From Escherichia coli (GTDB lineage: Bacteria; Pseudomonadota; Gammaproteobacteria; Enterobacterales; Enterobacteriaceae): 64,000 bases of DNA. Positions 1 through 30,211 of this stretch are shown one piece after another (within the stretch, counting starts at the first letter, position 1; each line of letters opens with the position of its first letter). The notes beneath the pieces are model-generated. The model did no database searches and had not been told where the DNA came from. It was given only the letters and a program-made list of their open reading frames with translations. The stretch lies in assembly GCF_001677475.2 (NCBI RefSeq), contig NZ_CP015229.1; one strand, written 5' to 3'. Both the position numbers and the translations under genes were made by a program.

Positions 1-454
1 ACTGTCCCTTAGCAGCAAACTCCACCGGGTAATTCACCGAATGACTGTCCTGAGTCAGACGTCCGCGATAATCAGCCTGAACATCCACTGCCCGCACATC
101 CACGCGAATACCATCACCGGCACCGCGGGTGACCACACCTCCCGCGTCCAGTTGGCCCGGGTTACCAAAATCCAAGGTGGCGACCTGCCCAGCCTTAAAG
201 GCTGAGCAGCCCTGAACCGAGGCGCCGGACTCATACAGACGCACCGTGAAGTCACGCGGCGGTACAGACGCCCCCGTGGACTTGCGGTAAGTCCCGAATG
301 TCAGCCGGCCACTGTTGCCGGTGCTGTCCGCATCCACCACCACATGACAGGCTGAGGCCACCACGTCAGCACTGAATACGGTTTTCTGAACAGTGGCGTG
401 AGAAACCCCGCCCCCTGCCAGAAGCAGAAGTACTGAAAGCGATAAATTTTTCAT
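1..454 (-). CDS. Fimbrial/pilin-like secreted protein, N-terminal part only (gene runs off the left edge)
   Basis: Manual reverse translation from ATG at 452-454 gives [20 protein letters not shown] (signal-peptide-like) followed by about 130 codons with no stop and two Cys about 47 residues apart; lies directly downstream of a PapB-family regulator on the same strand. Confidence 0.45.
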
Positions 455-461
455 GCAACTG

Positions 462-761
462 TTATCCCGTATATGGAATACTGGCTTCTGATATATAAAA
501 AGGAACCAGCCTGTTTACCGCCTGATGGGTACGCTGAATACGCCCGAGAGCACCAGAGAAATATCCCTGAGAAACCTCATGTCGTTCACAGGCCTCCCTT
601 CGGGTATAACCCAGAACCAGAAAATCCCTCAGCGCATTAAGAACCTTTTCACTGTGAACCGGAGATATTTCAGCTAATAACCAGAACTGGCTCTCTGACA
701 TTTTTCCGGGCGACAAAGTACGCCCGTGCTTCTTGCTCAGGTACAGGTCACTGCTGTTCAT
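462..761 (-). CDS. PapB-family fimbrial operon transcriptional regulator
   Basis: 99-aa ORF; core [55 protein letters not shown] parallels the PapB/SfaB/DaaA family as recalled; same strand and immediately upstream of the pilin-like gene. Confidence 0.7.
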
Positions 762-1332
762 TTACATCTATTCCAGAAACATAACCAGACAAAAAGACGA
801 CATAAATCCGGATAACAAAAACGTATTCACTCTGCTGCCGTCCTGTTTTCTGCGGCGAAGACTATCATGGTGTTTTATAGCGAAAAACACTAATTTCACG
901 ATCTTTATAACTAAAATAAAGAACAACAACAGCACAAACAGCCAAACAAAAACCAAAGACACAGAACAAACAACCAAAAACAAACAAAAATACAGATAAA
1001 AAGATCGTCGTTTTTGTGAGCATCAATATTGAATTCTGAACGAACTTTTTATGTTAATTTGGATTTTCATCAAAAAACAGATCATGTTTTTCATATAAAA
1101 AATGAATTTAGAATCACAGGAAATATTAAAGTGGGAAATTAAAATAACAGAAGGAAATATACGCATAATCATCTGCAGGTTAATAACGTAATCAATAACC
1201 AGAAACATTGTAAAAAACATGTTATGTGGTTGATTTTTTATGTGTTTTATAAGAATCAAAAGTGGGCGTGGAGGAGGAAGTCAGAGGCAGGTTATAATAA
1301 AGTGAATATTACAGATAAGGATGTAAACAGAA
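762..1332. promoter_or_regulatory. Divergent papI/papB-type intergenic control region with three GATC sites
   Basis: AT-rich 570 bp between divergent PapB-like and PapI-like genes; GATC at 900-903 (CGATCTTTAT), 1003-1006 (AAAGATCGTC) and 1080-1083; first two are 103 bp apart. Confidence 0.45.
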
Positions 1333-1539
1333 ATGAAGAAAACGCAGATACTGTCTTTTATTCAGGAGATAAACATGCCATGCAGAACGACTGATATTTC
1401 TTCACATTTTGACATGAGCACTTATCAGGCCCGCCATTACCTTATGTGTCTTGAAAAAGAGGGAAAAATAAGACGTACACCTCTTCGTCGTGGTGCCCGT
1501 ACTTTATGGGAGGTGGTCAGAGAAACAGAAAAGCATTAA
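1333..1539 (+). CDS. PapI/FaeA-family regulator
   Basis: 68-aa ORF with YQARHYLMCLEKEGKIRRTPLRRGARTLW, matching the PapI-family winged-helix core as recalled; divergent from the PapB-like gene. Confidence 0.7.
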   Translation: MKKTQILSFIQEINMPCRTTDISSHFDMSTYQARHYLMCLEKEGKIRRTPLRRGARTLWEVVRETEKH

Positions 1540-1809
1540 TAAAAAAATATGCATTTTTTCAGCATAAAATTAACTCATTCTTCTACTGAGATATAACCAT
1601 GATTTAACAACCAAGAACTTATATTGTTACTTTACGGCGTTATCTGAAATGTTGCCTAATCAAGAGTCTTTTTATACCACTCTCAGATACAGATTACTGA
1701 TGCGATATCCTGCACAGCCTGATTTTTGTCACAAAAGTTACGAAAATGAGTCTTCCACAACCTGGGGAGAAGAAAATGGATGAAACAAATATATAAGCTG
1801 TTTTAAGTT

Positions 1810-2139
1810 ATGGGCAACGTAATGCACTCTCTTAAGACACTTCTACAGTTACCTTGCGGATGGCGATGCAGTCGACAAATTATTAGCTCTGACGGTATAA
1901 CCCTCCATCTCCGCGGGAAACGCAAAACAGCACAATGCCCTGAATGCCTTAAATGCAGCGACTCTGTTCATAGTTGTCGTCAGCGCCGGATACAGCATTT
2001 ACCCTGCTCAGGGCAGACACTATGGCTTGTATTTTCCGTCCGCCACTGGTACTGCCGTAACCCTGCTTGTTCACGAAAAATTTTTGCCGGGTCGCTTGCT
2101 CCCTTCGCCGGTTCACACCTGCATATGAGACGACAATAA
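1810..2139 (+). pseudogene. ISL3-family transposase, N-terminal zinc-finger fragment
   Basis: 109-aa ORF rich in spaced Cys/His (CPECLKC...HSC...C) typical of the ISL3 N-terminal zinc-binding region; reading frame ends just before the IS21-family element. Confidence 0.5.
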
Positions 2140-2216
2140 CTCAGTCCGCCTGGCGCCGATTATTCTGGCCGGTTTTGTAACCTGAGTGTCATTTACATGA
2201 TCCAACAGGAAATGGC

Positions 2217-3716
2217 GTGACGCTCAATACTTCTCAGGTCAGTTACTATATGACTCAGCGTAAGAAAGGTATAACTCAGCATATCTCGGCCATGAAGGCT
2301 GGTATCTCAGTCCGTTCTGGTCGTCGGATCGAAAAAGGAGAGTGGGCAAAAAACAGTGTTCGGCACTGGCGCACACGCAAAGATCCTCTGGAAGCTGTGT
2401 GGGACAGCATGCTTGTTCCTCTGTTGAAAGAGAGGCCGGCTCTGACACCAACAACTCTACTGGAGATGCTACAGGATAAATATCCCGGCCAGTACCCCAA
2501 CAGCCTTCGAAGAACAATGCAACGGCGGGTTCGCGAATGGAAACTACAGTATGGTACAGAGCAGGAGGTCATGTTCCGCCAGCAACATCAGCCCGGCCTG
2601 CGAGGCCTGTCGGACTTTACTGAACTGAAAGGTGTAGTTGTCACCATCGCCGGTAAGTTGTTGGCGCATAAGTTGTATCACTTCCGTCTGGAATGGAGCC
2701 ACTGGAGCTGGATGCGGGTTGTTCTGGGTGGTGAGAGCTTCTCTGCTCTGGCTGAAGGCCTGCAGGAAGCCCTCGGACAACTGGGCGGAGTGCCGGTAGA
2801 ACATAAAACGGACAGCCTGAGGGCAGCATGGAAACAACAGGGCGAAGATGGACGCCGCGAGCTGACTGAGCGTTATGCTACTCTCTGTCAGCACTACGGA
2901 ATGCAGGGCGTACACAATAATGCCGGTCGGGGCCACGAAAATGGCTCGGTTGAAAGTGCCCACGGACATCTGAAAAGGCGTATCTGTCAGGCGCTGATAC
3001 TGCGGGGCAGTAACGACTTCAGCACCATAGAAGAATATCAGGCCTTCATCACTCAGCAGGTTATGCGGCACAACCGTAACAATCAGGATCTGGTCAAGGA
3101 AGAACGTCTTCATCTGAAACCGCTGCCGCTTCGTCGCAGTGCTGACTATGATGAGCTGACTGTGAGGGTTAGTCGCAGCAGTACCATCAATGTGAAGCAC
3201 GTCGTCTACAGCGTACCTTCCCGGCTTGTAGGTCAACTGTTACGGGTCAGGTTATGGGACGATCGTCTGAGCTGTTACGTTGGCAGCAGCGAGGTCATGA
3301 GCTGCCCTCGCGTCAGACCAGAAAAAGGGAAGACGCGGGCCCGTCGTATCGACTTCCGACATGTGATCGACAGTCTGGCAAAAAAGCCCGGTGCGTTCTG
3401 CCATGCAACGCTGAGAAATGACATCCTGCCGGACGATGAATGGCGGAGGCTGTGGCGTCGCTTATGTAATCATCTGGAGCCCGATATGGCAGGAAGGCTG
3501 ATGGTACATGCCCTGAAACTGGCTGCAGGATACGACGATATCTCAGTCGTGGCAAAAGGTATGGAGCAGATGCTGAATACCCCGGGAAACGTGGATCTGC
3601 ACCGGCTGATGCGCTTCCTGGGTATAAAAGAAAAGGCGTTGCCGGTAGTCAATGTGATACAGCATAACCTGAGCAGTTATGAGCAACTACTGCGTGGCAA
3701 GGGAGGTTCGCAGTGA
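2217..3716 (+). CDS. istA: IS21-family transposase IstA
   Basis: 499-aa ORF immediately upstream of, and overlapping, an IstB ATPase gene; size and arrangement fit IS21-family IstA. True start may be internal. Confidence 0.7.
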   Translation: MTLNTSQVSYYMTQRKKGITQHISAMKAGISVRSGRRIEKGEWAKNSVRHWRTRKDPLEAVWDSMLVPLLKERPALTPTTLLEMLQDKYPGQYPNSLRRTMQRRVREWKLQYGTEQEVMFRQQHQPGLRGLSDFTELKGVVVTIAGKLLAHKLYHFRLEWSHWSWMRVVLGGESFSALAEGLQEALGQLGGVPVEHKTDSLRAAWKQQGEDGRRELTERYATLCQHYGMQGVHNNAGRGHENGSVESAHGHLKRRICQALILRGSNDFSTIEEYQAFITQQVMRHNRNNQDLVKEERLHLKPLPLRRSADYDELTVRVSRSSTINVKHVVYSVPSRLVGQLLRVRLWDDRLSCYVGSSEVMSCPRVRPEKGKTRARRIDFRHVIDSLAKKPGAFCHATLRNDILPDDEWRRLWRRLCNHLEPDMAGRLMVHALKLAAGYDDISVVAKGMEQMLNTPGNVDLHRLMRFLGIKEKALPVVNVIQHNLSSYEQLLRGKGGSQ

Positions 3717-4468
3717 GCAATATCCATCACCTTGAACATAGCCTGCGTAAACTACGCCTGACACGAGTTGGAGCTGAATGGCACGCTCTGGAAAAACGAG
3801 CGCTGGCAGAAGGCTGGACACCATCGCGCTATCTTCTGACGCTATGCAATGAAGAACTCCTGTGGCGCGAGAGTGAAAAACTGCGTCGTTATAAAAAGGA
3901 GGCCCGGTTGCCAGTTGCCAAAACGCTGAGCGAATACGACTTCAGTCAGGTGCCGGAACTGAATGGAGCTCAGTTCCGGCAACTCTGTGAAACGACAGAC
4001 TGGGTTGATGCAGGAGAAAACGTTCTGCTGTTCGGAGCCAGCGGGTTGGGGAAAAGCCATCTGGCGGCAGCGATCGTGGATGGCGTAGTAGGTCAGGGCT
4101 ACCGGGCCCGGTTCTACAGCGCAGGAGAGCTGTTGCAGGAACTACGTAAAGCCAGAGCTCAGTTGAAACTGAATGAGCTGCTACTGAAACTGGATCGCTA
4201 CCGGGTGATAGTGGTGGATGATCTTGGCTATGTCAAACGCGATAGTGCCGAAACGGGTGTGCTGTTCGAGTTAATAGCGCATCGCTATGAACGTGGGAGC
4301 CTGGTGATAACCAGTAACCATCCGTTCAGCATGTGGGGCAGCATCTTCGTGGATGAGACTATGGCGGTGGCTGCGGCAGACAGGCTGCTCCATCACGGAT
4401 ATATGTTCGAACTGAAAGGGGAAAGCTACAGGAAAAAGACAGCGAAGGCAGTAACAAGCGCGACTTGA
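3713..4468 (+). CDS. istB: IS21-family helper ATPase IstB
   Basis: 251 aa with Walker A GASGLGKSHLA and Walker B VIVVDDLGY; start overlaps istA stop. Confidence 0.85.
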   Translation: MSNIHHLEHSLRKLRLTRVGAEWHALEKRALAEGWTPSRYLLTLCNEELLWRESEKLRRYKKEARLPVAKTLSEYDFSQVPELNGAQFRQLCETTDWVDAGENVLLFGASGLGKSHLAAAIVDGVVGQGYRARFYSAGELLQELRKARAQLKLNELLLKLDRYRVIVVDDLGYVKRDSAETGVLFELIAHRYERGSLVITSNHPFSMWGSIFVDETMAVAAADRLLHHGYMFELKGESYRKKTAKAVTSAT

Positions 4469-4621
4469 TGTCGCCCTGAAGGGTGCGGCCAGTATAGTTG
4501 GCGCGAGTCGGCAAAACTAGTTGACGTCTAATACCTGCAGTCTTCACAGGCGTTACAAAATTTACAACGTCAACTGGGATTAATAGCCGGAGGTGAGGCT
4601 GGAAAACGGGCTGCAACGGCA

Positions 4622-5482
4622 GTGGGTCTCCGTTGCAGTGCAGATACTCATCTTCGCAGGGTTATCAATACCCCAGAGACGAAACTGTCAGGCTCATCCC
4701 ATGTCGGTATTGATGAGTGGGCGTGGCATCGGGGCCACCGTTACGGTACGTTAATCGTCAATCTTGATACTCACCGTCCCCTCGTCCTGCTTCCCGGCCG
4801 TGATCAGCGTACGCTGGCGACCTGGTTCAGAAAATATCCGGAAATACAGGTTGTCTCACGTGATCGCAGTGGAGTCTATACGACAACAGCACGTGTAGGT
4901 GCACCTCAGGCCAGACAGGTGGCCGATCGATGGCACCTGCTAAAAAATATTGGCGATGCGCCTGAACAAATGATGTACAGACATATACCTCAGATACGTC
5001 TTGTTGCCAGTGAGTTGTCACCAAAGAAATCACCTGATCCAGAACCATCTGTGCCTGCAGCATCGCTCCGTCGTCCGGAACACCTAAAACAGCAAACCCG
5101 CAAAAAACGGCATCAGCATTGGACAGAGGTTATGGCCCTGCATAACAAGGGATGTAGTTTCAGGGAAATATCCCGTATTACAGGCCTGTCGCGTGTGACA
5201 GTCAGTCGCTGGGTACGTTCAGGAACATTCCCTGAAATGTCAACCCGACCTCCAAAGCGAGGGCTTCTGGAACCATGGCGGGAGTGGTTAAAAGAGCAAC
5301 GAGAAAGTGGTAATTATAACGCCAGCCAGATATGGCGGGAAATGGTGGCCCGGGAGTTTACAGGCAGTGAAACCATTGTCAGGGATGCTGTTGCCAAATG
5401 GCGTAAAGGCTGGATCCCACCGGTTACTACTGCCGTCAGACTTCCTTCAGTGTCCCGGGTAAGCCGCTGGTTGATGCCCTAG
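4622..5482 (+). pseudogene. ISL3-family transposase, catalytic-core fragment (continuation of the 1810-2139 fragment)
   Basis: HVGIDEWAWHRGHRYGTLIVNLDTHRPLVLLPGRDQRTL...VVSRDRSGVY...ADRWHLLKN fits the ISL3 DDE-domain pattern as recalled; further C-terminal fragment in another frame at 5531-5683. Confidence 0.6.
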
Positions 5483-5583
5483 AGAATAATCAGGGATGAA
5501 GAAAATTATGCTTCCTGATTTATTAGTCTGATGTGTGAAAAAGAACCTGAGCTGAAAATAGCGCAGCAACTGGCACTCGAGTT

Positions 5584-8845
<3,262 letters not shown>

Positions 8846-8903
8846 ATTTGTGTAATTGCCTGATTTTGATATGTTCAATCCAGCATCAAATGAAGGTTAA
8901 TTT

Positions 8904-10101
8904 ATGGCCGAAAAACAGTTACAGACTCTGGCTAACGAACTGGCCAAAAACCTCAAAACCCCTGAAGACCTCAGTCAGTTTGATCGGCTGCTGAAGAAGC
9001 TCAGCGTTGAAGCCGCTCTCAATGCAGAATCTTGGGTATGAGAAAAATCAGTCCAGACCAGGAGCTAACTCCCGCAACGGTTATTCCACAAAGACCGTTA
9101 TCACAAGCGACGGTCCACTGGAACTGCGTACTCCGCGCGATCGTGAAGCTACCTTCGAACCACAACTGGTAAAGAAAAATCAGACCCGTATTACCGGGAT
9201 GGATAACCAGATCCTCTCGTTGTATGCCAAAGGGATGACCACCCGTGAGATAGCTGCTGCGTTCAAAGAACTGTATGACGCAGATGTTTCACCGGCACTG
9301 ATATCAAAGGTCACCGATGCCGTGATGGAGCAGGTTGTAGAATGGCAAAACCGACCACTGGATGCTGTTTACCCCATTGTTTATCTTGACTGTATCGTCC
9401 TGAAAGTTCGGCAGGACAGTCGCGTCATCAACAAATCGGTGTTCCTGGCACTGGGCATCAATATCGAAGGTCAGAAAGAACTGCCAGGTATGTGGCTGGC
9501 CGAAAATGAAGGGGAGAAGTTCTGGCTCAATGTGCTGACTGAACTGAAAAACCGCGGTCTGAACGATATCCTCATCGCCTGTGTGGATGGCCTGAAAGGC
9601 TTCCCGGATGCCATCAACACAGTATATCCGAAGGCCTGCATCCAGTTATGCATCGTGCATATGGTGCGCAACAGCCTGCGCTTCGTGTCATGGAAGGACT
9701 ACAAAGCCGTCACTCGCGACCTGAAAGCGATTTATCAGGCTCCCACGGAAGAGGCAGGTCAGCAGGCACTGGAAGCGTTCGCTGCGGCCTGGGACAGTCG
9801 CTATCCTCAGATAAGCCGAAGCTGGCAGGCTAACTGGCCGAATCTTGCCACGTTCTTCGCTTATCCAACGGACATCCGCAAAGTGATCTATACGACGAAT
9901 GCCATCGAGTCGCTAAACAGCGTGATCCGCCATGCGATCAAAAAGCGTAAAGTGTTCCCGACAGACGACTCGGTGAAAAAAGTGGTGTGGCTGGCAATCC
10001 AGTCTGCGTCCCAGAAATGGACGATGCCGTTGAAGGACTGGCGAATGGCAATGAGCCGCTTTATTATCGAGTTCGGTGACCGCCTGGACGGTCACTTCTG
10101 A
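8904..10101 (+). pseudogene. IS256-family (mutator-type) transposase, frameshifted near 9030
   Basis: N-terminus MAEKQLQTLANELAKNLKTPEDLSQFDRLLKKLSVEAALNAE in one frame stops near 9040; remainder (GYSTKTVITSDGPLELRTPRDREATFEPQLVKKNQTRITGMDNQILSLYAKGMTTREI...) continues in the 9007-10101 frame. Confidence 0.65.
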
Positions 10102-12214: not shown

Positions 12215-12820
12215 TCAATTCCGGCTACAGCCAAAATTACGCTCACCGGTACCGTTGACTTTGGTATACTCTTTCGCGAGATAGTCAGCACGGTTCAGCA
12301 TATCCCGTAAACCAGCATCATCATCGCGTTCCAGCCACACCACCGGCCTGGACGGAAAATTCGCCAGTGTGGCATAGCATCCGGCATCCACCCCCAGGGC
12401 ACTGCACCACGCCTGTTTAATCATCCCGGCCAGTGACCCCGGATCGCGGTAATCGCCCGCACCACACCAGGTATCACGGTTGACCAGCAGTATCAGGTGA
12501 TAGTGTTTTTTACCTTTGTTCTCCCCGAACTCCCGGGCCCAGACGTAATGCAGCCTTGTGGTATGTACGCGTTTACCTTCACGGCGCTTACGCTTCTGGT
12601 AAGCGTCGATTCGGGCTTTCAGGGCATTGATGAAGCGGGATATTACAGCCGCGTCCGTTGCTGCCGGTACATCCGGGAGACGCAGATCAACCCGCAATGC
12701 CGTCAGACGGGGATGAACATCCAGTGCGTGCAGCACCGTCTCACGGATACGTTGTTGCCAGAAGGGGTTGTATTTGTAGGTCATGGTTAAATCTCCGTAT
12801 GTTTCATACGGAATAGCCAC
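12215..12820 (-). CDS. YagK/YfjJ-like (inovirus Gp2-type) cryptic-prophage protein
   Basis: 201-aa ORF; MTYKYNPFWQQRI... start region and overall composition resemble the YagK/YfjJ family as recalled; likely start at the internal Met (12784). Confidence 0.5.
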   Translation of the reverse strand: MAIPYETYGDLTMTYKYNPFWQQRIRETVLHALDVHPRLTALRVDLRLPDVPAATDAAVISRFINALKARIDAYQKRKRREGKRVHTTRLHYVWAREFGENKGKKHYHLILLVNRDTWCGAGDYRDPGSLAGMIKQAWCSALGVDAGCYATLANFPSRPVVWLERDDDAGLRDMLNRADYLAKEYTKVNGTGERNFGCSRN

Positions 12821-12983
12821 GTCGTAAAAAATGCGCAGAGCCCCTGAGGTGACCTCCGGCAGGACACTGTCTCAGGCCCTCTGTGATAACCCGAACGGTC
12901 GTCTCCGGACTGACGGTTGAATTTTCAGCGTTGTTTTTTTAATGTAAAAAACCGGTTACGGGTAAGGCTGTGAGGAGGGAGTT

Positions 12984-13184
12984 ATGGTGATACGCAAAAA
13001 GAAGTGCAGGGACTGTGGAAACGCGATTACTCATAATACAGTGTGTTGCCCGTATTGTGGTTCTGTCGACCCCTTCGGCTATTACCGGAATACAGACCGT
13101 ATCGTTACCATACTGCTGGCACTGATTATTGTGGTCCTGCTGACTACTGTCAGCGTCAGTGTGTATATACTGTGTAGCTGGTGA
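12984..13184 (+). CDS. Small zinc-ribbon plus single-transmembrane hypothetical protein
   Basis: 66 aa; CRDCGN...CCPYCGS followed by hydrophobic IVTILLALIIVVLLTTVSVSVYIL. Confidence 0.3.
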   Translation: MVIRKKKCRDCGNAITHNTVCCPYCGSVDPFGYYRNTDRIVTILLALIIVVLLTTVSVSVYILCSW

Positions 13185-14240
13185 GATAACGGTTCATGTA
13201 TCCCCTGAGCTGACAGTGTACCGGGTATATTAAGCGTAACCGACAGGTTCTCCTTCATACCATATTAAATTTTTCCAGGTATTGCCGCTGCCTTATTTCG
13301 TCCCATACAGGAAAACTCGTCTGGGTTTCTGACAAATACGTGAAACTCACAGCCCCTCAATATCAACCACACGCTGTAAGCCGGTAATACCTGAAAATCA
13401 GCCTATTACCGCCCACGCCTCCGGTACCATTCCCTTTTGATTTCGAATTCTTTGTTGTCGCTATACCGCGTAACATCACCGATACCACACACCGGCACAG
13501 ATAACACCGGACTTATCGTAGCGCTGCTTCAATATTCAGGTGACATATTTCCAGACGGAAGCCGGCACGCGATCGTAAAATTTGCGGTCAGTTCTGCCAG
13601 CCGGTTGTCAACGGCAGAGTTAAAGGCTTCCAGCTCCGCAAGGGTAAGTTTATAACGCGTGTAGGAATTCACTTTTCCCGCGTCTCCTGACGTATTACGG
13701 GCTGCCACTTACCTGGTGTCCCGCAATACAGCCTTAGTGTTCCGTTATCGGGGATCCAGACGCACCGCAACAACCGGGGAAGTATTTTTGGTTAGAGCAG
13801 TGTCAAGAGGGATTTCTCAGCCCCTCACTCACCGGCTCAGTTTCAGGGCAGGAGCATTAATACGCTCAGTTCATGTCTTATACAGGAATGGGCACAGGGG
13901 GAGCTGGCGTGTCACTGCTGATTTTACGCATCAGCGTTCATGTATCTGCACTCTGATACAGAATGCTTCACAGCGCTCTGTTACCGGAGAGATTTACTAT
14001 CTTAGGTTATTCTGGCAAATCCTTTACGTTACTCTCTGATGACTTCTTATATTCATAATACCAATCAGACAACCTTATCCCATCGGTGATATCAGTCTCC
14101 TGCTCGCCAGGAACGGGCTGACTCACTGTAACCACCTCCGAAAACAACTCTGCAATTATCAGAACGCCTGCTTCTCTCCCTGTCCTCACGAAAACTATCC
14201 CCTCTTTATCGCGCGTGCGTGCGGAAGCATCTTTTCGCAA

Positions 14241-14256
14241 CCCCCCCCCCCCCCCC
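14241..14256. repeat. Homopolymeric C16 tract
   Basis: Direct read: gcaa-cccccccccccccccc-ggga at 14241-14256. Confidence 0.85.
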
Positions 14257-14420
14257 GGGATTCCGCTACGGCTCTGCCATCGCAATCCCCCCGTTTATCT
14301 CCGGACAGCCAGATTCCCGATTATTTTTTACGTTTCTCCCCGGTTGTTATGCCGGTGAAGGTGGCGCGCTGTTTTCATGACCACACCGGCTGGTTTAACA
14401 ACATCCGGAGGAACATTCTC

Positions 14421-14627
14421 ATGGCTACCCCAGTTTCGCTGATGGATGACCAGATGGTCGACATGACGTTTATCACTCAACTGACCGGCTTAACCGATAA
14501 GTGGTTTTACAAACTCATCAAAGATGGGGCCTTTCCTGCCCCCATCAAACTGGGTCGCAGTTCCCGCTGGCTGAAAAGCGAAGTGGAAGCCTGGCTGCAG
14601 GCGCGGATTGCTCAGTCCCGTCCGTAA
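14421..14627 (+). CDS. AlpA-family phage-type transcriptional regulator
   Basis: 68 aa from ATG at 14421 with GGAGG 9 nt upstream; FITQLTGLTDKWFYKLIKDGAFPAPIKLGRSSRWLKSEVEAWL matches the AlpA HTH pattern. Confidence 0.65.
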   Translation: MATPVSLMDDQMVDMTFITQLTGLTDKWFYKLIKDGAFPAPIKLGRSSRWLKSEVEAWLQARIAQSRP

Positions 14628-14720
14628 TTTTTAACCACTAACCCTTCGCCCAAAGCAGACGCAATCTCCGGCCTGCCGGCGGCGCTCTGCTGCCTGTTAT
14701 CCCCCGTGAGGAATATGAAA

Positions 14721-15323
14721 ATGAAACAACAGTATCAGACCCGTTACGAGCTGCTCCATGAAAACTACCAGAAATGGCTGACCGGCTTCACCCGGCACGC
14801 CGTATCATGGGGCGTGTGTCATCCGAATATCTACTATTTCCATAATCTGACGCCCGGGTGGGTGTCATTCAATGGCGAAAAACCGGAGATTGCCATCGTT
14901 CCCCAGAGTCTGCACCGGCTGATTTATGGTCCGGACAAACGGAGCTCCCCGTCTCTGGGTGATGATCTGATAGTGAATTTATGCACCAGCGAACACCTGC
15001 TGGTTCATCATCCGATGCTGGAAGGGATCCTGCTATCTGAATGTGAGCGCCTGAAGCAACATTCTCTGGCAAACAAACTGATCAGCCTCTTCCGTCAGTT
15101 TGGCGGCACGGAGTTACGTCTCAAACTGGTCTGGCTCTGCTGGCTTGATTTAATGACCGGAAACAGCCTTGACGACTGGACGAAAAACCTGAAACACAAA
15201 TCAGAAAAAGATCTGGAGCAATGGATCATTGCACGTCAGGGTCAGAGTGAACCACTGACAAATCTGATGGATCAGTACGTGCTTATGGCATACCGTACAT
15301 CGGTTGATGCCGCTCACAGTTGA
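14721..15323 (+). CDS. Hypothetical protein (about 200 aa), no recognised family
   Basis: Uninterrupted ORF directly downstream of the AlpA-like gene, RBS-like GAGGA upstream; start choice (14706/14715/14721) uncertain. Confidence 0.4.
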   Translation: MKQQYQTRYELLHENYQKWLTGFTRHAVSWGVCHPNIYYFHNLTPGWVSFNGEKPEIAIVPQSLHRLIYGPDKRSSPSLGDDLIVNLCTSEHLLVHHPMLEGILLSECERLKQHSLANKLISLFRQFGGTELRLKLVWLCWLDLMTGNSLDDWTKNLKHKSEKDLEQWIIARQGQSEPLTNLMDQYVLMAYRTSVDAAHS

Positions 15324-16125
15324 TGTCTGAGAACCACAGGGCTGGCAGTTGAAAACCAGCCCTGTGGTAAAATACAGTAATAGCGGCGTACATCAGGCAC
15401 GCCGCTCACTCGTCCACAGATCATATACGTCATTATACTGCGCGATAACGGAGGGCTTCAGCACCCGGTCATTTCTGAGCGGGTATGAATACCATTGATG
15501 ATGCGAAGCAGCCACGGGCAGAAACGTTCTTCACAACCAGGTGCCTCCATCTTCACTGCAGGCTGAATGTGCCGGCTTGTTATCCACCAGATAATGGTAT
15601 GCTCCGGTACATGCATACCCCGGTGACTATAAACGCACTGAATCATAGCCTCCCACCTCAGCAGGAGGCAGTCAGCTTTCAGGCGGAAAAACGTTGCAGT
15701 TAAAGATCGTGAGAATCGCTGTTTCGTTGCATAGCAACCTGAACAGTTGTAGTGAAACATTTTCCTGCATCAGCACATGGTCAGGGGCCGTCTGTATGGC
15801 GTGGAATACTGATGTTTCGGCTGATGGCAAGCCTCATTCTCTGTGGAAAAAGGGGCGCGCATTAGCTTCTCAACCAGAGAGCGTCACAAAGACAAATATT
15901 GCTGAAAATCGCATTCATCGTTCAGACGTGAATGCCCGGAGACAAAAGCCGCTGTCCGTACAGCCCCCCTCTGACCTGAACAAAAAGCATACACACAACA
16001 GGCTCACCTGCCCCCGAAAAACCATAACTTCAGCAATACCAGTGACACCAGCACGTTACCTCAGTGCCACATCTTTAGACCGCGATCAATCTGAAATGTG
16101 ACTATCGGGGCAATATCCCTGCTTT

Positions 16126-16515
16126 GTGGTACACGATAACCAGAAAACATCCCCTGAACCGCCAGCCAGAAAGACTGGCCACAAAAGGGGTAAGCTGAAA
16201 TCGTTTATGGATTACATCGACATATGCCTAGCAGAGAATGTCCGGAATGACGAGATTATCTTTGCGGAGATTAAGGCAATGGGCTATACGGGCCGACGTT
16301 CCATGCCGCGTTACTACATTCAGCCCGGACGTAAAATGCGCCCGTCAAAAAGAACGGTTCGCTTCGAAACTCAGCCAGGATACCACCTCTCCGTCACACC
16401 CGGGAAGAAGTTGATATGGTGGTTGCCGGACAACAGCGCTCCTGGATTGACTGCTGCATCACTCAACCACGCTGAATATCAAAGGAGAGCGTTACCGGTT
16501 AAAAGAGAAACGTAA
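16126..16515 (+). pseudogene. IS21-family IstA N-terminal remnant
   Basis: PEPPARKTGHKRGKLKSFMDYIDICLAENVRNDEIIFAEIKAMGYTGRRSMPRYYIQPGRKMRPSKRTVRFETQPGY closely parallels the IS21 IstA N-terminal region as recalled; homology stops after about 80 residues. Confidence 0.55.
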
Positions 16516-17706
16516 AGCTATGGTGATGACCCAAAACGCAACGCCTGTCAGTGAGGATGAAATGGTGAAAAGCGGACAGCATCAGTAACGGAAGTATCTT
16601 AGCGGGTACGAAAATGGCAGGATCGTGACATTGACAGAATATCTCCTGATCATCTTGAATGACTGCAGTTGCTGTGGAAAAGTAAGCTATCTCCACCCAC
16701 GGCACCACTTAACAGGCATTCCGTAACTTCCCCCAGACTTACTATGACGCATTATCGGTGCACTGAAAACAGGAGAGTGCGCTTAAAACCGCAGACCGCA
16801 TGCGGGTGTTACTGCATGACAGTCTGGCCGTATTGTGAGATGTCGGCAGGAACCGATGTCCGCGCAGGGGGGAACTTCCTGTAGTACCTGACGCTTCAAA
16901 TGGTATTAACCGTAGGGCGTTGTTGGTTCCGGATCGCGGAAATGGGAGCACAGGTCTGCTACGGGGTGTACCTCTGACAGTAAATCCGGCTCGCTCATCT
17001 GACAGCCTCTCTCCCGGAAAAGACCAAAAATGAGATCGTCTCCTCAACAGCAGAGAAAAGGTCTTGACAGACAGGCTACATTGCATACGATTTATGAAGA
17101 AAAAGACAGCAAATATGGAGGTTATAGCGGAGAACACCCTACGAAATTCCTATGAAAAACGATTGGAAAAAATATCAAATTCGATTCGTTTTTATATGCT
17201 TTTTGGGAGCGTGGCGATGACGAACTGTTGCATGTACAGAGGAGAATGCACCCGGAAGCACCAGAATCATCCAGAAAGGCAGAACGATTACGCATCAAAC
17301 CAGGAGACAGCAATATCACGGTAATATACTGATTTAAAATGAATTTACAGCAATACGTGAAAACATTTTTTACTTAAAGGAGACAGATGCGCTGAAGAGA
17401 GTGCAGGTATTTTTATATAAAAATGAGAAGTTTACGGGATGTATATCCGGCACACTATGACCGGAGAATATCAGTCAAGCTTAAAAAGGCAATAAATACA
17501 GTGAGTTAAATACACAGAGAAAACGTAGTATCAGAGGGTACATCTTACAACAGAGACTGAATTTCCGGTTTTTCATAACCGGCGCATTTCGGAAAGTGCA
17601 GGCGGCCAGGAGGTTTTCTGACGCCACTACCTAGTAGATTGTTCTGTACATCATGTACGGAGGTTTTTGTTTGCTTTTTTAAAATCTGCAAATGTGAGAA
17701 GAGCAG

Positions 17707-18873
17707 GTGAGGTGTATTGTGGGAAAGGAACTGGATGATATCTGCACCAGCTGTCCGTATATCGATGCTGTAAAACGGCACAAACAACAGCTCGGTGCCA
17801 TAGAGGAATATACACAGTGGTTAAAAAAAGAACCACGGGCATCTTATTTTTTTCTGTTCCGGCTGTATACCCGCATTCACAATACATTTTTCCCCCAAAA
17901 GCAACAACTCCCGTTCACTCCCGGTGGCACTCACTGCCCGGAACCTGATGTCACCCTTCGGGACTTAACGCTTTCCCCGGGCTACCACAGTGATTATGCC
18001 CCTCACCCCATTCCGGAGATGGACAGTTCTATTGTTGTTCCCCCCACTAATGAAAACACCTCGCCTCCGGAAGATACTCCCGACAACACTCCGGCCGGAG
18101 GCAATACCGGACAAGCGGAAAAGACCAGAAACGCAGGACTCACACCCATTCCTGAAAAACGTTCAGGAATGCCCCCGGAACATCTGCGGTTTGCCATGGG
18201 TTTTCCATCGCAACCGAAGATTGCCGGTCCCAGAGAAAAGCCGATGCGCACCGTGCATCCGGATAATATCTACCGTGAAATTATATGGTTCTGCTCCAGT
18301 TACCTGCTGAAATCCGGACCAGAGGCTACGAGGACGATTATCAACTCAGTATTCTCTGAATGGGCCAGCATAAACAATGATTACCCCTCCCCCTTTTCGT
18401 GGGTGGACAGCAGGGACAGTGAACAGTGTGACTGGTTATGGAACGCCATGCAGGTCCGGTGTGTGGGAACCCCGCTGAATCCCCTTACCCCGGAGCAGAA
18501 ATACTGGTTCGCCTGCGCCACATTTGATAACTGGGAAGGCTGGAATGAGCAACAGGTACAGTTTTTACTGGAAAGTAATCCCAGACGAAACAGAGCGAAG
18601 TTTGCGATAAACTCCTTCCAGACTCTCGGGGTTAAACAGCATAAAGCAGTTCTTCTTGATGAACTGAAAAGTGCCCGGGAGCAACAAAAAAGGCGTGATG
18701 AACGTGCTGATGGTTCCGTCCCGCTGAAACTGTCCGGAAAAATCCACAAACAGCTTGAAAGTGTTGCCCGAAGTCGTGGTGTCCCCCCCAAAAAACTGCT
18801 GAATGAAATGATTGAGCAGGCGTACCGGGATTTGGTGGCAACCAGGCAGAACAGCCAGATCGATTCCAGATAA
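17707..18873 (+). CDS. Hypothetical protein with Pro/Thr-rich segment and C-terminal ribbon-helix-helix-like tail
   Basis: 388-codon ORF from GTG (first in-frame ATG at 18019); low-complexity PPTNENTSPPEDTPDNTP; C-terminal LKLSGKIHKQLESVARSRGVPPKKLLNEMIEQAY resembles an RHH/CopG-type motif. Confidence 0.4.
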   Translation: MRCIVGKELDDICTSCPYIDAVKRHKQQLGAIEEYTQWLKKEPRASYFFLFRLYTRIHNTFFPQKQQLPFTPGGTHCPEPDVTLRDLTLSPGYHSDYAPHPIPEMDSSIVVPPTNENTSPPEDTPDNTPAGGNTGQAEKTRNAGLTPIPEKRSGMPPEHLRFAMGFPSQPKIAGPREKPMRTVHPDNIYREIIWFCSSYLLKSGPEATRTIINSVFSEWASINNDYPSPFSWVDSRDSEQCDWLWNAMQVRCVGTPLNPLTPEQKYWFACATFDNWEGWNEQQVQFLLESNPRRNRAKFAINSFQTLGVKQHKAVLLDELKSAREQQKRRDERADGSVPLKLSGKIHKQLESVARSRGVPPKKLLNEMIEQAYRDLVATRQNSQIDSR

Positions 18874-18956
18874 TTTCAGACATATATTATCTCCGTGAAT
18901 CCCCCGCCACCTTTCCGGTGTGCGGGGTTTTGTCTTTTTTCACCGGGAATACATGT

Positions 18957-19829
18957 ATGAATCCGTCTGATGCCATTGAGGCAATTGAAAAACCACTTTC
19001 TTCCCTGCCTTACTCGCTTTCCCGTCACATCCTGGAACATCTGCGCAAACTCACCAGTCACGAACCCGTGATTGGCATTATGGGTAAAAGCGGGGCCGGT
19101 AAATCCTCACTCTGTAATGCGCTGTTTCAGGGGGAGGTCACACCGGTCAGTGATGTTCACGCCGGCACCCGGGAAGTGAAGCGTTTCCGTCTGAGTGGAC
19201 ACGGTCACAGCATGGTTATCACTGACCTGCCCGGGGTGGGCGAGAGCCGGGAGCGGGATGCAGAGTATGAAGCTCTGTACCGTGACATTCTGCCCGAACT
19301 GGACCTGGTACTGTGGCTGATTAAAACCGATGACCGTGCCCTGTCTGTGGATGAGTATTTCTGGCGACACATCCTGCACCGGGGACATCAGCAGGTGCTG
19401 TTTGTGGTGACGCAGGCCGATAAAACGGAGCCCTGCCATGAATGGGATATGGCCGGTATTCAGCCTTCTCCCGCACAGGCACAGAACATTCGCGAAAAAA
19501 CGGAGGCGGTATTCCGTCTGTTCCGGCCCGTACATCCGGTTGTGGCCGTATCGGCCCGCACCGGCTGGGAACTGGATACGCTGGTCAGTGCGCTCATGAC
19601 AGCGCTTCCCGACCATGCCGCCAGTCCCCTGATGACCCGCCTGCAGGACGAGCTGCGCACGGAATCTGTCCGCGCTCAGGCCCGTGAACAGTTTACCGGT
19701 GCGGTGGACCGGATATTTGACACGGCGGAGAGCGTCTGTATTGCCTCTGTTGCATGCACGGTTCTGCGTGCCGTCCGTGACACGGTGGTCTCTGTTGCCC
19801 GCGCTGTATGGAACTGGATTTTCTTCTGA
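18957..19829 (+). CDS. YeeP/YkfA/YfjP-family small GTPase
   Basis: P-loop GIMGKSGAGKSS, switch-like DLPGVGE and G4-like region; sits immediately upstream of the Ag43 gene as in CP4-44-type modules. Confidence 0.7.
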   Translation: MNPSDAIEAIEKPLSSLPYSLSRHILEHLRKLTSHEPVIGIMGKSGAGKSSLCNALFQGEVTPVSDVHAGTREVKRFRLSGHGHSMVITDLPGVGESRERDAEYEALYRDILPELDLVLWLIKTDDRALSVDEYFWRHILHRGHQQVLFVVTQADKTEPCHEWDMAGIQPSPAQAQNIREKTEAVFRLFRPVHPVVAVSARTGWELDTLVSALMTALPDHAASPLMTRLQDELRTESVRAQAREQFTGAVDRIFDTAESVCIASVACTVLRAVRDTVVSVARAVWNWIFF

Positions 19830-19944
19830 ACACTCTGCCAGGGGAAATGCCTGATTACATTGCGTTAACCAACTGAAAACATGACACAAACACCTCATAC
19901 CCCTCCTGTTTCTCTTGCGTGGCCGCCTTGTTATTAATAGAATA

Positions 19945-19988
19945 AAACGATCGATAAAACAGGTATCGATCGTTACTATCGATCGTTT
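19945..19988. promoter_or_regulatory. Ag43 phase-variation switch (three GATC sites, OxyR-binding region)
   Basis: GATC at 19949-19952, 19968-19971 and 19981-19984 within AACGATCGATAAAACAGGTATCGATCGTTACTATCGATCG, about 220 bp upstream of the Ag43 start codon. Confidence 0.7.
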
Positions 19989-20201
19989 ATAGTGGTTAAT
20001 GGCCTGCGAAAAGGCAGCTGAATCTCTTCATCATGCAGAACGGAATTGCACACAACGGACTGATACTTCTCTGGCGGATGAGAGAGGGGAAGCATTTATG
20101 TCCGGGAAAAACCACTTTATCTGACCATGCTGTTTTGTACCTGCCGGTATCCACATTTGTGGGTACCGGCTTTTTTATTCACCCTCTGTAAGGAAAAGCT
20201 G

Positions 20202-23048: not shown

Positions 23049-23168
23049 CAGAACCATCGCCTCTTTGTGGTCCCGGTCATCATGATCGGGACCCGGACCG
23101 GCGCAACGGATATTCAACGCCACATTCGCTGGCATTAACAATAACATGATATTCATCACGGAGTGACT

Positions 23169-25685
23169 ATGTTACAGATAGTCGGCGCGCTGATCCTGCT
23201 GATAGCAGGATTTGCCATTCTTCGCCTTTTGTTCAGAGCATTAATCAGCACGGCTTCTGTGCTGGCAGGGCTTATATTGCTGTGTCTGTTCGGCCCGGCC
23301 TTACTGGCTGGCTATATCACCGAACGCATAACACGGTTGTTCCATATTCGCTGGCTGGCAGGCGTATTTCTGACGATTGCCGGAATGATCATCAGCTTCA
23401 TGTGGGGACTTGATGGTAAACATATCGCGCTGGAGGCTCACACCTTTGACTCTGTGAAATTTATTCTGACCACCGCTCTCGCCGGTGGTCTGCTGGCTGT
23501 TCCCCTGCAGATCAAAAACATTCAGCAGAACGGGATCACACCAGAAGATATCAGCAAGGAAATTAACGGGTATTACTGCTGTTTTTATACTGCCTTTTTC
23601 CTTATGGCATGTTCTGCATGCGCACCATTGATCGCGTTACAGTACGATATTTCACCGTCACTGATGTGGTGGGGCGGGTTGTTGTACTGGCTGGCTGCAT
23701 TAGTGACGCTGCTATGGGCGGCCAGCCAAATCCAGGCGCTGAAAAAACTGACCTGTGCCATCAGCCAGACACTGGAAGAACAACCGGTGCTCAACAGTAA
23801 ATCGTGGCTGACCAGTTTGCAAAACGATTACAGCCTTCCTGACTCACTGACGGAGCGCATCTGGCTGACGCTCATTTCTCAACGGATTTCCCGGGGAGAG
23901 CTGAGGGAATTTGAACTGGCAGACGGAAACTGGTTACTGAACAATGCCTGGTATGAAAGAAACATGGCAGGTTTTAACGAACAGTTGAAAGAGAACCTGT
24001 CATTCACACCTGATGAACTGAAAACGCTCTTCCGGAACCGCCTGAATTTATCACCGGAAGCGAATGACGATTTTCTCGATCGTTGCCTGGACGGCGGTGA
24101 CTGGTATCCCTTTTCAGAAGGTCGCCGTTTTGTATCATTCCATCACGTGGATGAGCTTCGTATCTGTGCCTCCTGCGGGCTGACAGAAGTACATCATGCC
24201 CCGGAAAATCATAAGCCGGATCCGGAATGGTACTGCTCCTCTCTTTGTCGCGAAACAGAAACACTGTGTCAGGAAATTTATGAACGCCCTTACAACTGTT
24301 TTATTTCCGATGCAACGGCGAATGGTCTGATTCTCATGAAACTGCCGGAAACCTGGAGTACAAATGAGAAAATGTTTGCTTCCGGAGGGCAGGGACATGG
24401 GTTTGCCGCTGAACGGGGAAACCATATTGTCGACAGAGTCCGTCTGAAAAACGCACGGATCCTCGGTGATAATAATGCCAGAAATGGAGCAGACAGACTG
24501 GTCAGCGGAACAGAAATCCAGACGAAATATTGTTCAACTGCAGCCCGTAGCGTCGGTGCGGCATTCGACGGACAAAACGGACAGTATCGTTACATGGGAA
24601 ATAATGGCCCCATGCAACTGGAAGTCCCCCGTGATCAGTATGCCGGCGCTGTTGAAACCATGAGGAATAAGATCCGCGAAGGTAAAGTACCCGGTGTAAC
24701 CGATCCCGCAGAAGCGTCCCGGCTGATTCGTCGGGGACATCTGACTTATACTCAGGCCCGTAATATCACCCGGTTCGGGACCATCGAATCGGTCACTTAT
24801 GATATTGCCGAGGGTTCGGTTGTCAGTCTGGCGGCCGGAGGGATCAGTTTTGCACTGACGGCATCGGTCTTCTGGCTCAGCACCAGCGATCGCGATGCAG
24901 CCCTGCAGACAGCTGCTGTCCAGGCAGGAAAAACCTTCACCCGCACACTGGCTGTCTACATCACAACCCAGCAACTCCACCGGCTCAGTGTTGTTCAGGG
25001 TATGCTGAAGCACATTGATTTTTCGACTGCCAGCCCGACTGTCCGACTGGCTCTTCAGAAGGGGACCGGTGCAGGAAATATCAGTGCCCTGAACAAAGTA
25101 ATGAAGGGTACGCTGGTGACATCTCTGGCACTGGTAGCTGTCACAACCGGCCCTGACATGATCAAAATGTTGCGGGGACGGATCTCCGGTGCGCAGTTCA
25201 TCAGGAATCTTGCCGTGGCATCTTCCGGTGTGGCAGGTGGTGCTGTCGGGTCAGTGGCGGGCGGAATACTGTTCAGTCCACTGGGACCATTTGGTGCACT
25301 GACAGGGCGTGTGGTTGGCGGTGTTCTGGGGGGAATGATTGCCTCCGCTGTATCAGGAAAAATTGCCGGAGCGCTGGTTGAAGAAGATCGCGTCAAAATT
25401 CTGGCAATGATTCAGGAGCAGGTGACATGGCTTGCCGGCAGTTTCCTGCTGACCGGACATGAGATTGAAAATCTGAACGAGAATCTGGCCCGTGTTATCG
25501 ATCAGAATGCTCTGGAGATCATTTTCGCCGCCGGTATACAACAACGGGCCGCGACCAATATGTTAATCAAACCACTGGTGGTCAGTATCATCAGGCAACG
25601 CCCCGTCATGGAATATGATGCATCCCATCTCGGCAATATGGTTAACCGACTGGAAGAAGCATTACCCCCGGAGTTACCGGCATAA
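23169..25685 (+). CDS. YeeR-like inner-membrane protein (uncharacterised)
   Basis: About 838 aa; several N-terminal hydrophobic helices, central Cys cluster CASCGLTEVHH...YCSSLC, Gly-rich C-terminal helices (GVAGGAVGSVAGGILF...VVGGVLGGMIASAVSG); position right after flu as for yeeR. Confidence 0.5.
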   Translation: MLQIVGALILLIAGFAILRLLFRALISTASVLAGLILLCLFGPALLAGYITERITRLFHIRWLAGVFLTIAGMIISFMWGLDGKHIALEAHTFDSVKFILTTALAGGLLAVPLQIKNIQQNGITPEDISKEINGYYCCFYTAFFLMACSACAPLIALQYDISPSLMWWGGLLYWLAALVTLLWAASQIQALKKLTCAISQTLEEQPVLNSKSWLTSLQNDYSLPDSLTERIWLTLISQRISRGELREFELADGNWLLNNAWYERNMAGFNEQLKENLSFTPDELKTLFRNRLNLSPEANDDFLDRCLDGGDWYPFSEGRRFVSFHHVDELRICASCGLTEVHHAPENHKPDPEWYCSSLCRETETLCQEIYERPYNCFISDATANGLILMKLPETWSTNEKMFASGGQGHGFAAERGNHIVDRVRLKNARILGDNNARNGADRLVSGTEIQTKYCSTAARSVGAAFDGQNGQYRYMGNNGPMQLEVPRDQYAGAVETMRNKIREGKVPGVTDPAEASRLIRRGHLTYTQARNITRFGTIESVTYDIAEGSVVSLAAGGISFALTASVFWLSTSDRDAALQTAAVQAGKTFTRTLAVYITTQQLHRLSVVQGMLKHIDFSTASPTVRLALQKGTGAGNISALNKVMKGTLVTSLALVAVTTGPDMIKMLRGRISGAQFIRNLAVASSGVAGGAVGSVAGGILFSPLGPFGALTGRVVGGVLGGMIASAVSGKIAGALVEEDRVKILAMIQEQVTWLAGSFLLTGHEIENLNENLARVIDQNALEIIFAAGIQQRAATNMLIKPLVVSIIRQRPVMEYDASHLGNMVNRLEEALPPELPA

Positions 25686-25760
25686 CGGCTATTCTGCGCC
25701 TTTTACGTTTTATCACCTGATTTGTCAGTGTCATCGTCATGACTCAGAGAGGTAAATACC

Positions 25761-26216: not shown

Positions 26217-26294
26217 TCCCTGAACTCAGTTTCATGCTTCAGCCTCTGTCACAACGCGTGGCAGAGGCTTTTTATTTATCAGGAGAAAACAGAT

Positions 26295-28022: not shown

Positions 28023-28037
28023 ATGGAGGCAGGGACA

Positions 28038-30200: not shown

Positions 30201-30211
30201 CCAGGAACAAC

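Follow-up and report, generated by a model that had tools for sequence, protein, structure and literature searches.

The window, the 64,000-nucleotide stretch of DNA analyzed here, begins within a fimbrial operon and continues into a pair of small divergent regulatory genes. Between the two regulators, at 762-1332, lies an AT-rich intergenic region of 571 bp (31% G+C).

2-454, minus strand: the first 151 codons, at the 5' end, of a gene for a FaeC-type minor fimbrial subunit, truncated where the window stops; in its K88 (F4)-family operon it is the structural gene that comes first
462-761, minus strand: intact gene for a PapB-family regulator of 99 aa (PF03333, E 1.4e-37)
762-1332: divergent regulatory region between the PapB-family and FaeA/PapI-family genes, which holds the putative switch and can be aligned end to end with 11 related intergenic regions (alignment A1)
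1333-1539, plus strand: intact gene for a FaeA/PapI-family regulator of 68 aa (PF04703, E 1.4e-29)

A preliminary description of this DNA had proposed divergent PapI-like and PapB-like regulators with a pilin-like gene downstream. Matches to PF04703 on the plus strand and PF03333 on the minus strand bear out the regulators, and the fimbrial-subunit open reading frame is present, although its homologs identify the visible "pilin" as a FaeC-type minor subunit. The same description regarded the fimbrial type as not identifiable, a view that has to be given up: judged by full-length homologs in relatives, the operon is of the K88 (F4)/F41/CS31A family. Those homologs, of 180 aa, have the PapB-like gene on one side and the faeD usher on the other, and they carry PF27684 (K88_fimbrial_pA). 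The 151-codon fragment itself had no match in the Pfam copy that was searched, and none of the PapB-like, PapI-like and FaeC-type proteins of the window had a match in NCBIfam. E. coli A41 has a complete operon of the K88 (F4) type, which runs from the PapB-like regulator through the 180-aa subunit, the faeD usher, the faeE chaperone, faeF and a major subunit to faeH, faeI and faeJ. Relatives with the full order carry PF27684, Usher, PapD_N, DUF5462 and three Fimbrial_K88 genes, of which the window shows the regulator and the 151 FaeC-type codons.

Both regulators have named homologs in characterized fimbrial systems. The PapB-family protein is 97% identical to the regulator of operons found in an F41 strain and on bovine plasmids, 61% identical to AfaA, 48% to a K88-like FaeB, and 41% to PapB. 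For the 68-aa protein, which retains the family-invariant residues YQAR.YL...R.P.R.G....W, identity is 59% to AfaF, 56% to a K88-like FaeA, and 42% to PapI. This exact 68-aa sequence is indexed in 103 blocks of a public assembly collection, six of which were viewed; five of the six hold the full operon, while the sixth (L140) shows no more of it than the regulator and the FaeC-type gene.

The viewed loci that share the protein are 96.0 to 97.4% identical to positions 1-1710 of the window. Among complete E. coli genomes and PLSDB, no record was identical to the locus, the best local identity being 97.4%, and each of the two collections holds about 150 records of relatives at 80 to 96% identity. 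The switch regions of E. coli CP099344.1 and A41 are nearly the same as that of the window. The operons of some relatives sit in an island beside a P4-type integrase and the yqgA-speC-nupG-mltC-yggX-mutY genes. Those of others adjoin accessory genes as in the window, including Zn-ribbon, YagK/YfjJ, Hha, AlpA, GTPase and Ag43 genes. The clade is found on chromosomes and on plasmids, it comes from isolates of wild animals, water, soil and farms, and it appears to lack individual characterization. On the far side of the PapI-like gene, a pile-up of insertion sequences starts about 270 bp past the stop codon with an ISL3-type transposase split by IS21 and continues with further IS21, IS3 and Mutator-type transposases to about 10 kb. 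Elsewhere in the window, at 50.6-58.1 kb, lies the glc operon, for which the highest identity to any complete E. coli genome is 97.2%.

GATC boxes and their conservation

GATC occurs at 900-903, 1003-1006 and 1080-1083, and no further copy lies within 762-1332. The distances between successive sites, measured from G to G, are 103 bp and 77 bp. Re-reading the sequence thus returned the first two positions, their 103-bp spacing and the third site at 1080 as they had been described. The immediate contexts of the first two sites are CGATCTTTAT (900-903) and AAAGATCGTC (1003-1006), and the wider contexts of GATC-900, GATC-1003 and GATC-1080 are tttcaCGATCtttat, aaaaaGATCgtcg and aaacaGATCatg, respectively.

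We rejected the number of sites as evidence for a switch: composition alone predicts 1.5 GATCs in the gap against the three observed, and at least three occurred in 20% of shuffles (P of about 0.2). Nor is there enrichment across the whole window, where 236 sites compare with 249 expected. The nonrandom signal is the arrangement of the first two GATCs. Both lie inside ACGATC, in inverted orientation and flanked by runs of T or A, with ACGATCTTT at 898-906 and AAAGATCGT at 1000-1008. The pattern ACGATCTTT-N93-AAAGATCGT was found at one place in the window, and none of 100 shuffles contained it even with two mismatches permitted. ACGATC is present in both boxes of the window; the PapI-dependent rise in Lrp affinity reportedly requires it, a result attributed to Hernday et al. 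in 2003.

893-908: promoter-proximal GATC box, TTTCACGATCTTTATA, with GATC at 900-903 and ACGATC at 898-903; homologous to GATC-prox of pap, which lies in Lrp site 2
909-992: inter-box spacer, rich in A and C on the plus strand; its length is fixed but its sequence varies freely
993-1009: promoter-distal GATC box, CAGATAAAAAGATCGTC, with GATC at 1003-1006 and minus-strand ACGATC at 1003-1008; homologous to GATC-dist of pap, which lies in Lrp site 5
1080-1083: third GATC, polymorphic, in the linker AGATCATG

Alignment A1 comprised 12 sequences over the whole gap, with conservation scored for each column. Its three most conserved 12-column blocks start at 895, 994 and 1066 and correspond to the proximal box, the distal box and a CRP-like site. 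Within the proximal box, which is common to pap, afa, K88, the F41 type and pSalSendai, CGATCTTT is invariant in all 12 aligned regions and falls in one of these blocks. The distal box, the second of the three, is kept in every locus but an Escherichia marmotae plasmid (L015). Only 6% of columns are invariant in the 82-bp core of the spacer, even though its length varies by no more than one base.

GATC offsets were counted from the start codon of the PapB-family gene in each locus. The comparison covered a pap locus (L003), two K88 plasmids (L002 and L018), an afa/dra plasmid (L017), the chromosome of an F41-named strain (L013), bovine plasmids of the F41-like type (L014 and L146), a Salmonella plasmid (L016) and a dozen closer relatives.

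pap: offsets 106 and 208; spacing 102 bp; contexts aaACGATCtttt and aaaaGATCGTct
Window: offsets 139, 242 and 319; spacing of the box pair 103 bp
afa/dra: offsets 141 and 243; spacing 102 bp
F41 type and bovine plasmids: offsets 139 and 242; spacing 103 bp
pSalSendai: offsets 151 and 253; spacing 102 bp
K88: offsets 73, 104 and 207; the last two GATCs form the box pair, 103 bp apart
K88-like pSE11-3: offsets 80, 111 and 213; the last two GATCs form the box pair, 102 bp apart
Close relatives: offsets 137-139 and 240-242; spacing 102-103 bp

Across about 25 related loci, the sequence of the boxes, their orientation and the spacing of 102-103 bp are kept in all but one, the sole exception being plasmid L015, in which the distal GATC has been lost. 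The preliminary description put the pap spacing at 102 bp, and the real pap locus (L003) has exactly that spacing and the same inverted ACGATC boxes. That the boxes and the distance between them are constrained while the intervening sequence is free is what a protein-bridged two-site switch would predict.

Other searches of the region were less specific. As candidates for Lrp sites, both boxes contain GN3TTT cores, and a GGTGTTTT motif lies about 31 bp promoter-ward, but such motifs are frequent in AT-rich DNA, and sequence is not a reliable guide to Lrp binding. A scan for CGATCTTT-N91-94-AAAGATCG, which specifies 16 bases and is too loose a pattern, covered 100,044 species genomes (298 Gb), a search space in which about 280 matches are expected by chance; the matches listed included unrelated metagenome-assembled genomes, and among them PapB or PapI neighbors were found at only three Edwardsiella hoshinae loci. 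An Rfam search of positions 1-2200, with E values up to 1, returned no RNA family.

CRP-like site and predicted promoters

The remaining elements were placed largely by their position relative to the boxes.

859-886, minus strand: predicted promoter of the PapB-like gene and fimbrial operon, assigned by position (-35-like TTTTCG at 886-881; -10-like TAGTCT at 864-859)
1059-1074: CRP-site homolog, TTGGATTTTCATCAAA; positional homolog of the pap CRP site
1293-1298, plus strand: candidate -10 element of the PapI-like gene, TATAAT, with a poor -35

The center of the CRP-like site lies 63.5 bp beyond GATC-dist, an offset that is identical in pap, afa, K88-like pSE11-3 and pSalSendai, and the right half of the site forms the third of the conserved blocks in A1. 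Relative to TGTGA-N6-TCACA, the pap site (TGTGATATACATCAAA) has one mismatch, whereas the core in the window has three in the 10 consensus positions. By homology, CRP would bind at 1059-1074. A different candidate overlapping the third GATC, GATCATGTTTTTCATA, has four mismatches and was not adopted. At that same place, the F41 type has a better CRP-like match, TGTCACACTTTTCATA, with two mismatches. From the CRP-like site to the ATG of the PapI-like gene is about 266 bp here, compared with about 133 bp in pap, so the PapI side is not arranged exactly as it is in pap. On that side, TATAAT is retained in most aligned relatives (A1 columns about 570-580), and a Shine-Dalgarno-like AAGGAT stands at 1317, ahead of the gene.

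On the operon side, a -35-like hexamer begins 13 nt past GATC-prox and a -10-like hexamer follows 16-17 nt on, in pap and the F41 type and afa as well as in the window.

pap: TTTACA-N17-TAACTT
Window: TTTTCG-N16-TAGTCT
F41 type: TTTTCG-N16-TAATCT
afa: TTTTAA-N16-TAGTAT

Transcription would start near 852 on the minus strand and near 1305 on the plus strand. A generic sigma-70 scan found no promoter on either strand at the predicted, pap-homologous places. Its one minus-strand candidate lay at 1183-1156, and it reported fewer candidates than in shuffled sequence. Failure of such a scan to detect the predicted operon promoter fits an activator-dependent promoter, a class for which the scan is uninformative.

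Comparison with pap, afa, clp and fae

Features common to the window and pap are PapI-family and PapB-family genes in divergent orientation, a pair of ACGATC boxes inverted with respect to each other, an A/C-rich spacer, and the offsets of the CRP-like site and the -35-like hexamer. The differences lie in the surroundings. The box spacing is 103 bp rather than 102 bp, and the gap is 571 bp rather than 404 bp, the PapB side accounting for 33 bp of the difference and the stretch from the CRP-like site to the PapI-like gene for about 130 bp. The core of the CRP-like site departs further from consensus, the regulators are only 41-42% identical to PapB and PapI, and the operon is of the K88 family instead of the P-pilus operon. 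In addition, the GTCTA element adjacent to GATC in pap (PMC4417163) is not retained, the window having GTCGT and GTGAA. The afa/dra/daa loci are similarly close in layout, as their boxes are 102 bp apart and their offsets from the ATG, 141 and 243, are nearly those of the window. Like the window, afa has a TTGGA...TCAAA CRP-like core, and the block that follows it is TTTTTCATG in afa and TTTTTCATA here. AfaF is also the named PapI homolog with the highest identity to the window protein. These loci differ in having an 801-bp gap, a different adhesin class and no third GATC.

The closest characterized type is that of F41/CS31A, represented by the F41-named strain (L013) and the bovine plasmids (L014 and L146). 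Besides the near-identity of its PapB-like regulator, DNA identity is about 91% over window positions 1-1143, the two GATC offsets are the same, and the promoter-like hexamers are nearly so. In these loci, however, homology stops near window position 1131-1143 and gives way to insertion sequences, with no PapI-like gene adjacent, whereas the window keeps its cognate PapI-like gene in place. On pCE0007a, an orphan PapI-like copy with 79% identity is found about 16 kb from the locus. Judging from this pattern, loci of the F41/CS31A type have lost their PapI homolog to insertion; they also lack the third GATC. Horton et al. (PMC4417163), in their account of the sites, give the GATC flanks of clp as GTCTA and GTTAA. 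The flanks in L013 and L014 are exactly these, which, along with the strain name, supports equating the two loci with the clp type.

For the K88 family, precedents for ON/OFF control are mixed. The account by Horton et al. lists both clp and fae among promoters that depend on GATC methylation (PMC4417163), and Graveline et al. 2014 state in their title that Lrp and homologues of PapI affect phase variation in CS31A (PMC4135631). In its passage on clp, on the other hand, a 2025 review (PMC12388093) that cites Martin 1996 places clp outside Dam and phase-variation control, and the title of Martin 1996 describes negative control by Lrp and ClpB. Outside the family, afa and sfa undergo Dam/Lrp phase variation by the same route as pap (PMC9820224).

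The fae (K88/F4) region resembles the window in operon family, gene order, a box pair 102-103 bp apart, and the presence of FaeA and FaeB homologs, to which the window regulators are 48-56% identical. It differs in several features of the switch region. K88 carries an extra GATC 31 bp from GATC-prox on the faeB/promoter side; the window has GGTG at the equivalent position, and its own third GATC lies 77 bp beyond GATC-dist. The distal box of K88 reads GATCGC, whereas ACGATC is present in both boxes of the window. In K88 proper, an IS1 lies between the switch and a truncated faeA, and the window has no such element. Because the extra K88 GATC and the IS1 are absent and ACGATC is found on both sides, the window resembles, in its sequence, the pap/clp/afa type more than it does K88 proper.

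Predicted switch and its alternatives

From the genes, boxes, spacing, conservation and positional homology with pap, we infer that Lrp, CRP and a PapI-like protein would bind in the region, that the operon promoter lies at 859-886, and that the two GATCs would be differentially methylated with inheritance of ON and OFF states. Our most likely reading, which we consider probable, is that 762-1332 is the regulatory switch of a K88 (F4)/F41/CS31A-family operon, homologous to the papI-papB region and working in the same way. That the region is a functional homolog of the Lrp/Dam region of the pap family is very likely; that it produces true heritable phase variation is a less secure prediction, albeit one that we favor. 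At the level of sequence, the pap-like Dam/Lrp switch between divergent regulators proposed in the preliminary description stands, as the inverted ACGATC boxes are those of pap and the CRP-like site and promoter-like hexamers have the same offsets from the GATCs as in pap. The host is an Escherichia, its glc operon being 97% identical to that of E. coli, and Dam, Lrp and CRP are therefore to be expected in it.

The proposed mechanism follows pap, with roles assigned by homology: GATC-900 would be the proximal and GATC-1003 the distal site, and the 68-aa and 99-aa proteins would be the equivalents of PapI and PapB. In pap OFF cells, Lrp at sites 1-3 over GATC-prox blocks both the promoter and methylation at that site, while GATC-dist is methylated; in ON cells, PapI moves Lrp to sites 4-6 over GATC-dist, the methylated GATC-prox bars its return, CRP and Lrp activate papBA, and PapB activates papI (PMC11316696, PMC9820224). 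By analogy, Lrp would bind cooperatively at one of two alternative clusters in the window, around GATC-900 or around GATC-1003. In the OFF state, Lrp on the proximal cluster would cover the promoter at 859-886 and shield GATC-900 from Dam, with GATC-1003 methylated. After replication, the FaeA/PapI-like protein may give Lrp a higher affinity for the ACGATC-containing distal site. A shift of Lrp to the distal cluster would permit Dam to methylate GATC-900 and so exclude Lrp from the promoter. In the resulting ON state, cAMP-CRP at 1059-1074 would cause the PapB-like/fimbrial promoter to fire, and the PapB-like protein may feed back on the PapI-like gene.

An argument can be made that the same boxes serve a different kind of control. 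K88 fae is said to be repressed by Lrp and FaeA and not to be phase-variable, a finding attributed to Huisman and de Graaf in 1995. The title of the 1995 fae paper presents Lrp as a negative regulator of fae whose control FaeA modulates and methylation affects. Were the window to operate in this manner, Lrp and the FaeA-like protein would exert a graded, methylation-modulated repression, that is, a rheostat instead of a heritable ON/OFF switch. Membership in the K88 family is consistent with such control, as are the 1995 title, the negative control by Lrp and ClpB named in the title of Martin 1996, and a PapI-like protein that is about as close to K88-like FaeA (56%) as to AfaF (59%), with PapI at 42%. 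Nevertheless, we regard it as unlikely, given that GGTG replaces the extra GATC that distinguishes K88, the IS1 that disrupts the K88 region is missing, and both boxes carry ACGATC as in pap, unlike the GATCGC of the K88 distal box. Furthermore, the title of Graveline et al. 2014 describes phase variation in CS31A, and the CS31A regulator is 97% identical to the one here. A bleaker view is that the locus is a decayed remnant, in which an intact switch sequence regulates nothing because nearby insertion activity has inactivated the operon. The pile-up of insertion sequences so soon after the PapI-like stop codon lends this some weight, and the window shows the operon only up to codon 151 of its first subunit gene. 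We consider it quite improbable, however, as the two regulator genes and the whole stretch between them are intact and match relatives that have complete operons at 96-97% identity. Homology with those relatives runs to about position 1710, which indicates that the insertion elements left the switch untouched.

A further alternative would make GATC-1080 a third methylation-sensitive input that alters the binding of CRP, the PapB-like protein or Lrp, or the rate of switching. The site, whose existence the preliminary description had correctly noted, starts 5 bp past the 16-bp CRP-like core, is present in 12 of the related loci, and has a precedent in the third GATC of K88 within the same family. 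It cannot be counted as part of the conserved core, however. GATC-1080 occupies the only variable stretch, an 8-bp linker, between the conserved blocks TTCATCAAAAAAC and TTTTTCATA. The linker is AAATCATG in L142-L145, the four relatives closest to the window, which have AATC in place of GATC and surroundings that are otherwise identical; other relatives have GAATCTGT, AATTCCGA, TGTCACAC or AAGTTATA. The site is absent from 10 loci that retain the adjacent conserved block, and it is missing from the F41/CS31A type, pSalSendai, afa and pap. It also lacks the ACGATC and A-tract context of the boxes and is not equivalent in position to the extra GATC of K88. A role as a third input is thus highly improbable. 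Given the variable linker, the AATC of the nearest relatives and the difference from the K88 position, GATC-1080 is probably incidental, a bystander to the switch. Two bolder suggestions, for which we see only a slim chance even when they are taken jointly, are that the G/A polymorphism at 1080 is a natural allele that gains or loses a third Dam target next to the CRP-like site and so tunes the switching rate or catabolite control between strains, or that the clade is a natural clp-type system with its cognate PapI.

The kind of switch described here is a textbook one, and the known picture of the pap family is unchanged. For specialists, the comparison shows that the spacing and sequence of the boxes are far more constrained than the rest of the region, that extra GATCs have been gained and lost at different places in different lineages, and that the regulatory region of the F41/CS31A type exists in complete form, with its own PapI homolog. 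If the clade does prove to be a clp-type system, its retention of that homolog would make it a natural setting in which to study the clp-type switch without a borrowed PapI. For annotation, the two small regulators and the GATC pair are to be read as one unit. More generally, an operon truncated by the edge of the window can be identified as encoding a K88-family adhesin, located in a chromosomal island of an Escherichia strain and predicted to be under epigenetic control of the pap type, and its expression within a clone is likely to be heterogeneous.

Variation within and beside the switch

Between the two GATC boxes, the spacer at 909-992 shows strong A/C richness on the strand shown, with CAAA/CAAC-like runs. 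The spacer of the authentic pap locus (L003, 2191-2288) is similarly A/C-rich, yet the two cannot be aligned, and the composition bias itself may be a conserved property. An Escherichia marmotae plasmid (L015, pRHB24-C12_2, 3262-3812) carries a variant switch in which the distal GATC is gone, the site reading AAAAAAATAATT, and an additional GATC is found on the promoter side, 31 bp from the proximal GATC. The extra GATC of K88 has the same 31-bp arrangement as this new site. Extra GATCs about three helical turns from the proximal GATC seem to have originated repeatedly.

On the PapI-like side, IS elements interrupt the regulatory region in the chromosome of an F41 strain and in bovine plasmids (L013 from 3643 and L014 from 3631, respectively), with the cut in F41-type loci falling about 190 bp short of the expected start of the PapI-like gene. 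In the bovine plasmid pCE0007a, an orphan FaeA/PapI-family gene lies about 16 kb away, amid IS fragments (L146, 27346-27555); it has 79% identity to the PapI-like gene of the window. K88 proper (L002, pUMNK88_K88, 3298-4108) has an IS1 directly ahead of the position of the CRP-site homolog, and its faeA was seen by tblastn as the C-terminal half only (query residues 29-64).

Surroundings of the locus

In the window, homology with the relatives stops about 175 bp past the PapI-like stop codon, where an IS pile-up (1714-10100) begins that includes an ISL3-family transposase gene in two pieces, interrupted by an IS21. The remainder of the island (12215-31336) is similar to that of the close relatives L142-L145 and E. 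coli A41; a Pfam search with its 840-amino-acid ORF returned no match.

Features of the IS pile-up and the remainder of the island
1810-2139, ISL3-family transposase, Zn-ribbon N-terminal part
2217-3716, IS21 istA, inside the ISL3-family transposase gene
3713-4468, IS21 istB, inside the ISL3-family transposase gene
4622-5482, ISL3-family transposase, DDE part
5584-7271, minus strand, second IS21-type istB/istA
7540-8845, IS3-type element
9007-10101, Mutator-family transposase
12215-12820, YagK/YfjJ-type protein
18918-19829, GTPase
20127-23048, Ag43/AIDA-type autotransporter
23163-25685, 840-amino-acid ORF
26628-27446, DUF932 protein
30494-31336, DUF4942 protein

The core chromosome returns at 32157-58100, and no tRNA genes were found within the 64-kb window.

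Features of the core chromosome
within 32157-58100, type II secretion genes GspL, GspK, GspF, and GspD
43572-48149, 1525-amino-acid M60-peptidase lipoprotein of the SslE/YghJ type
within 32157-58100, lactate or glycolate permease and glc operon

Because the best identity of the glc segment to 5,426 complete E. coli genomes is 97.2%, the host seems, by this sequence measure, to lie slightly beyond sampled E. coli diversity.

Regulation and distribution of the switch type

According to section 6 of a 2025 review (PMC12388093), Dam methylation and phase-variation control are absent for clp, the CS31A operon. This appears to conflict with Graveline et al. (2014), whose title states that CS31A phase variation is influenced by Lrp and PapI homologues.

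The two-box pattern (both GATC boxes with N91-94 between them) was scanned over 100,044 species genomes. Among the matches listed, at least four exact ones fall in the single genome of Edwardsiella hoshinae NBRC 105699, and three of these four (L096, L097, and L099) adjoin PapB-family or PapI-family ORFs. Given this adjacency, the switch type is, as judged from sequence, present in multiple copies beyond Escherichia and Salmonella.
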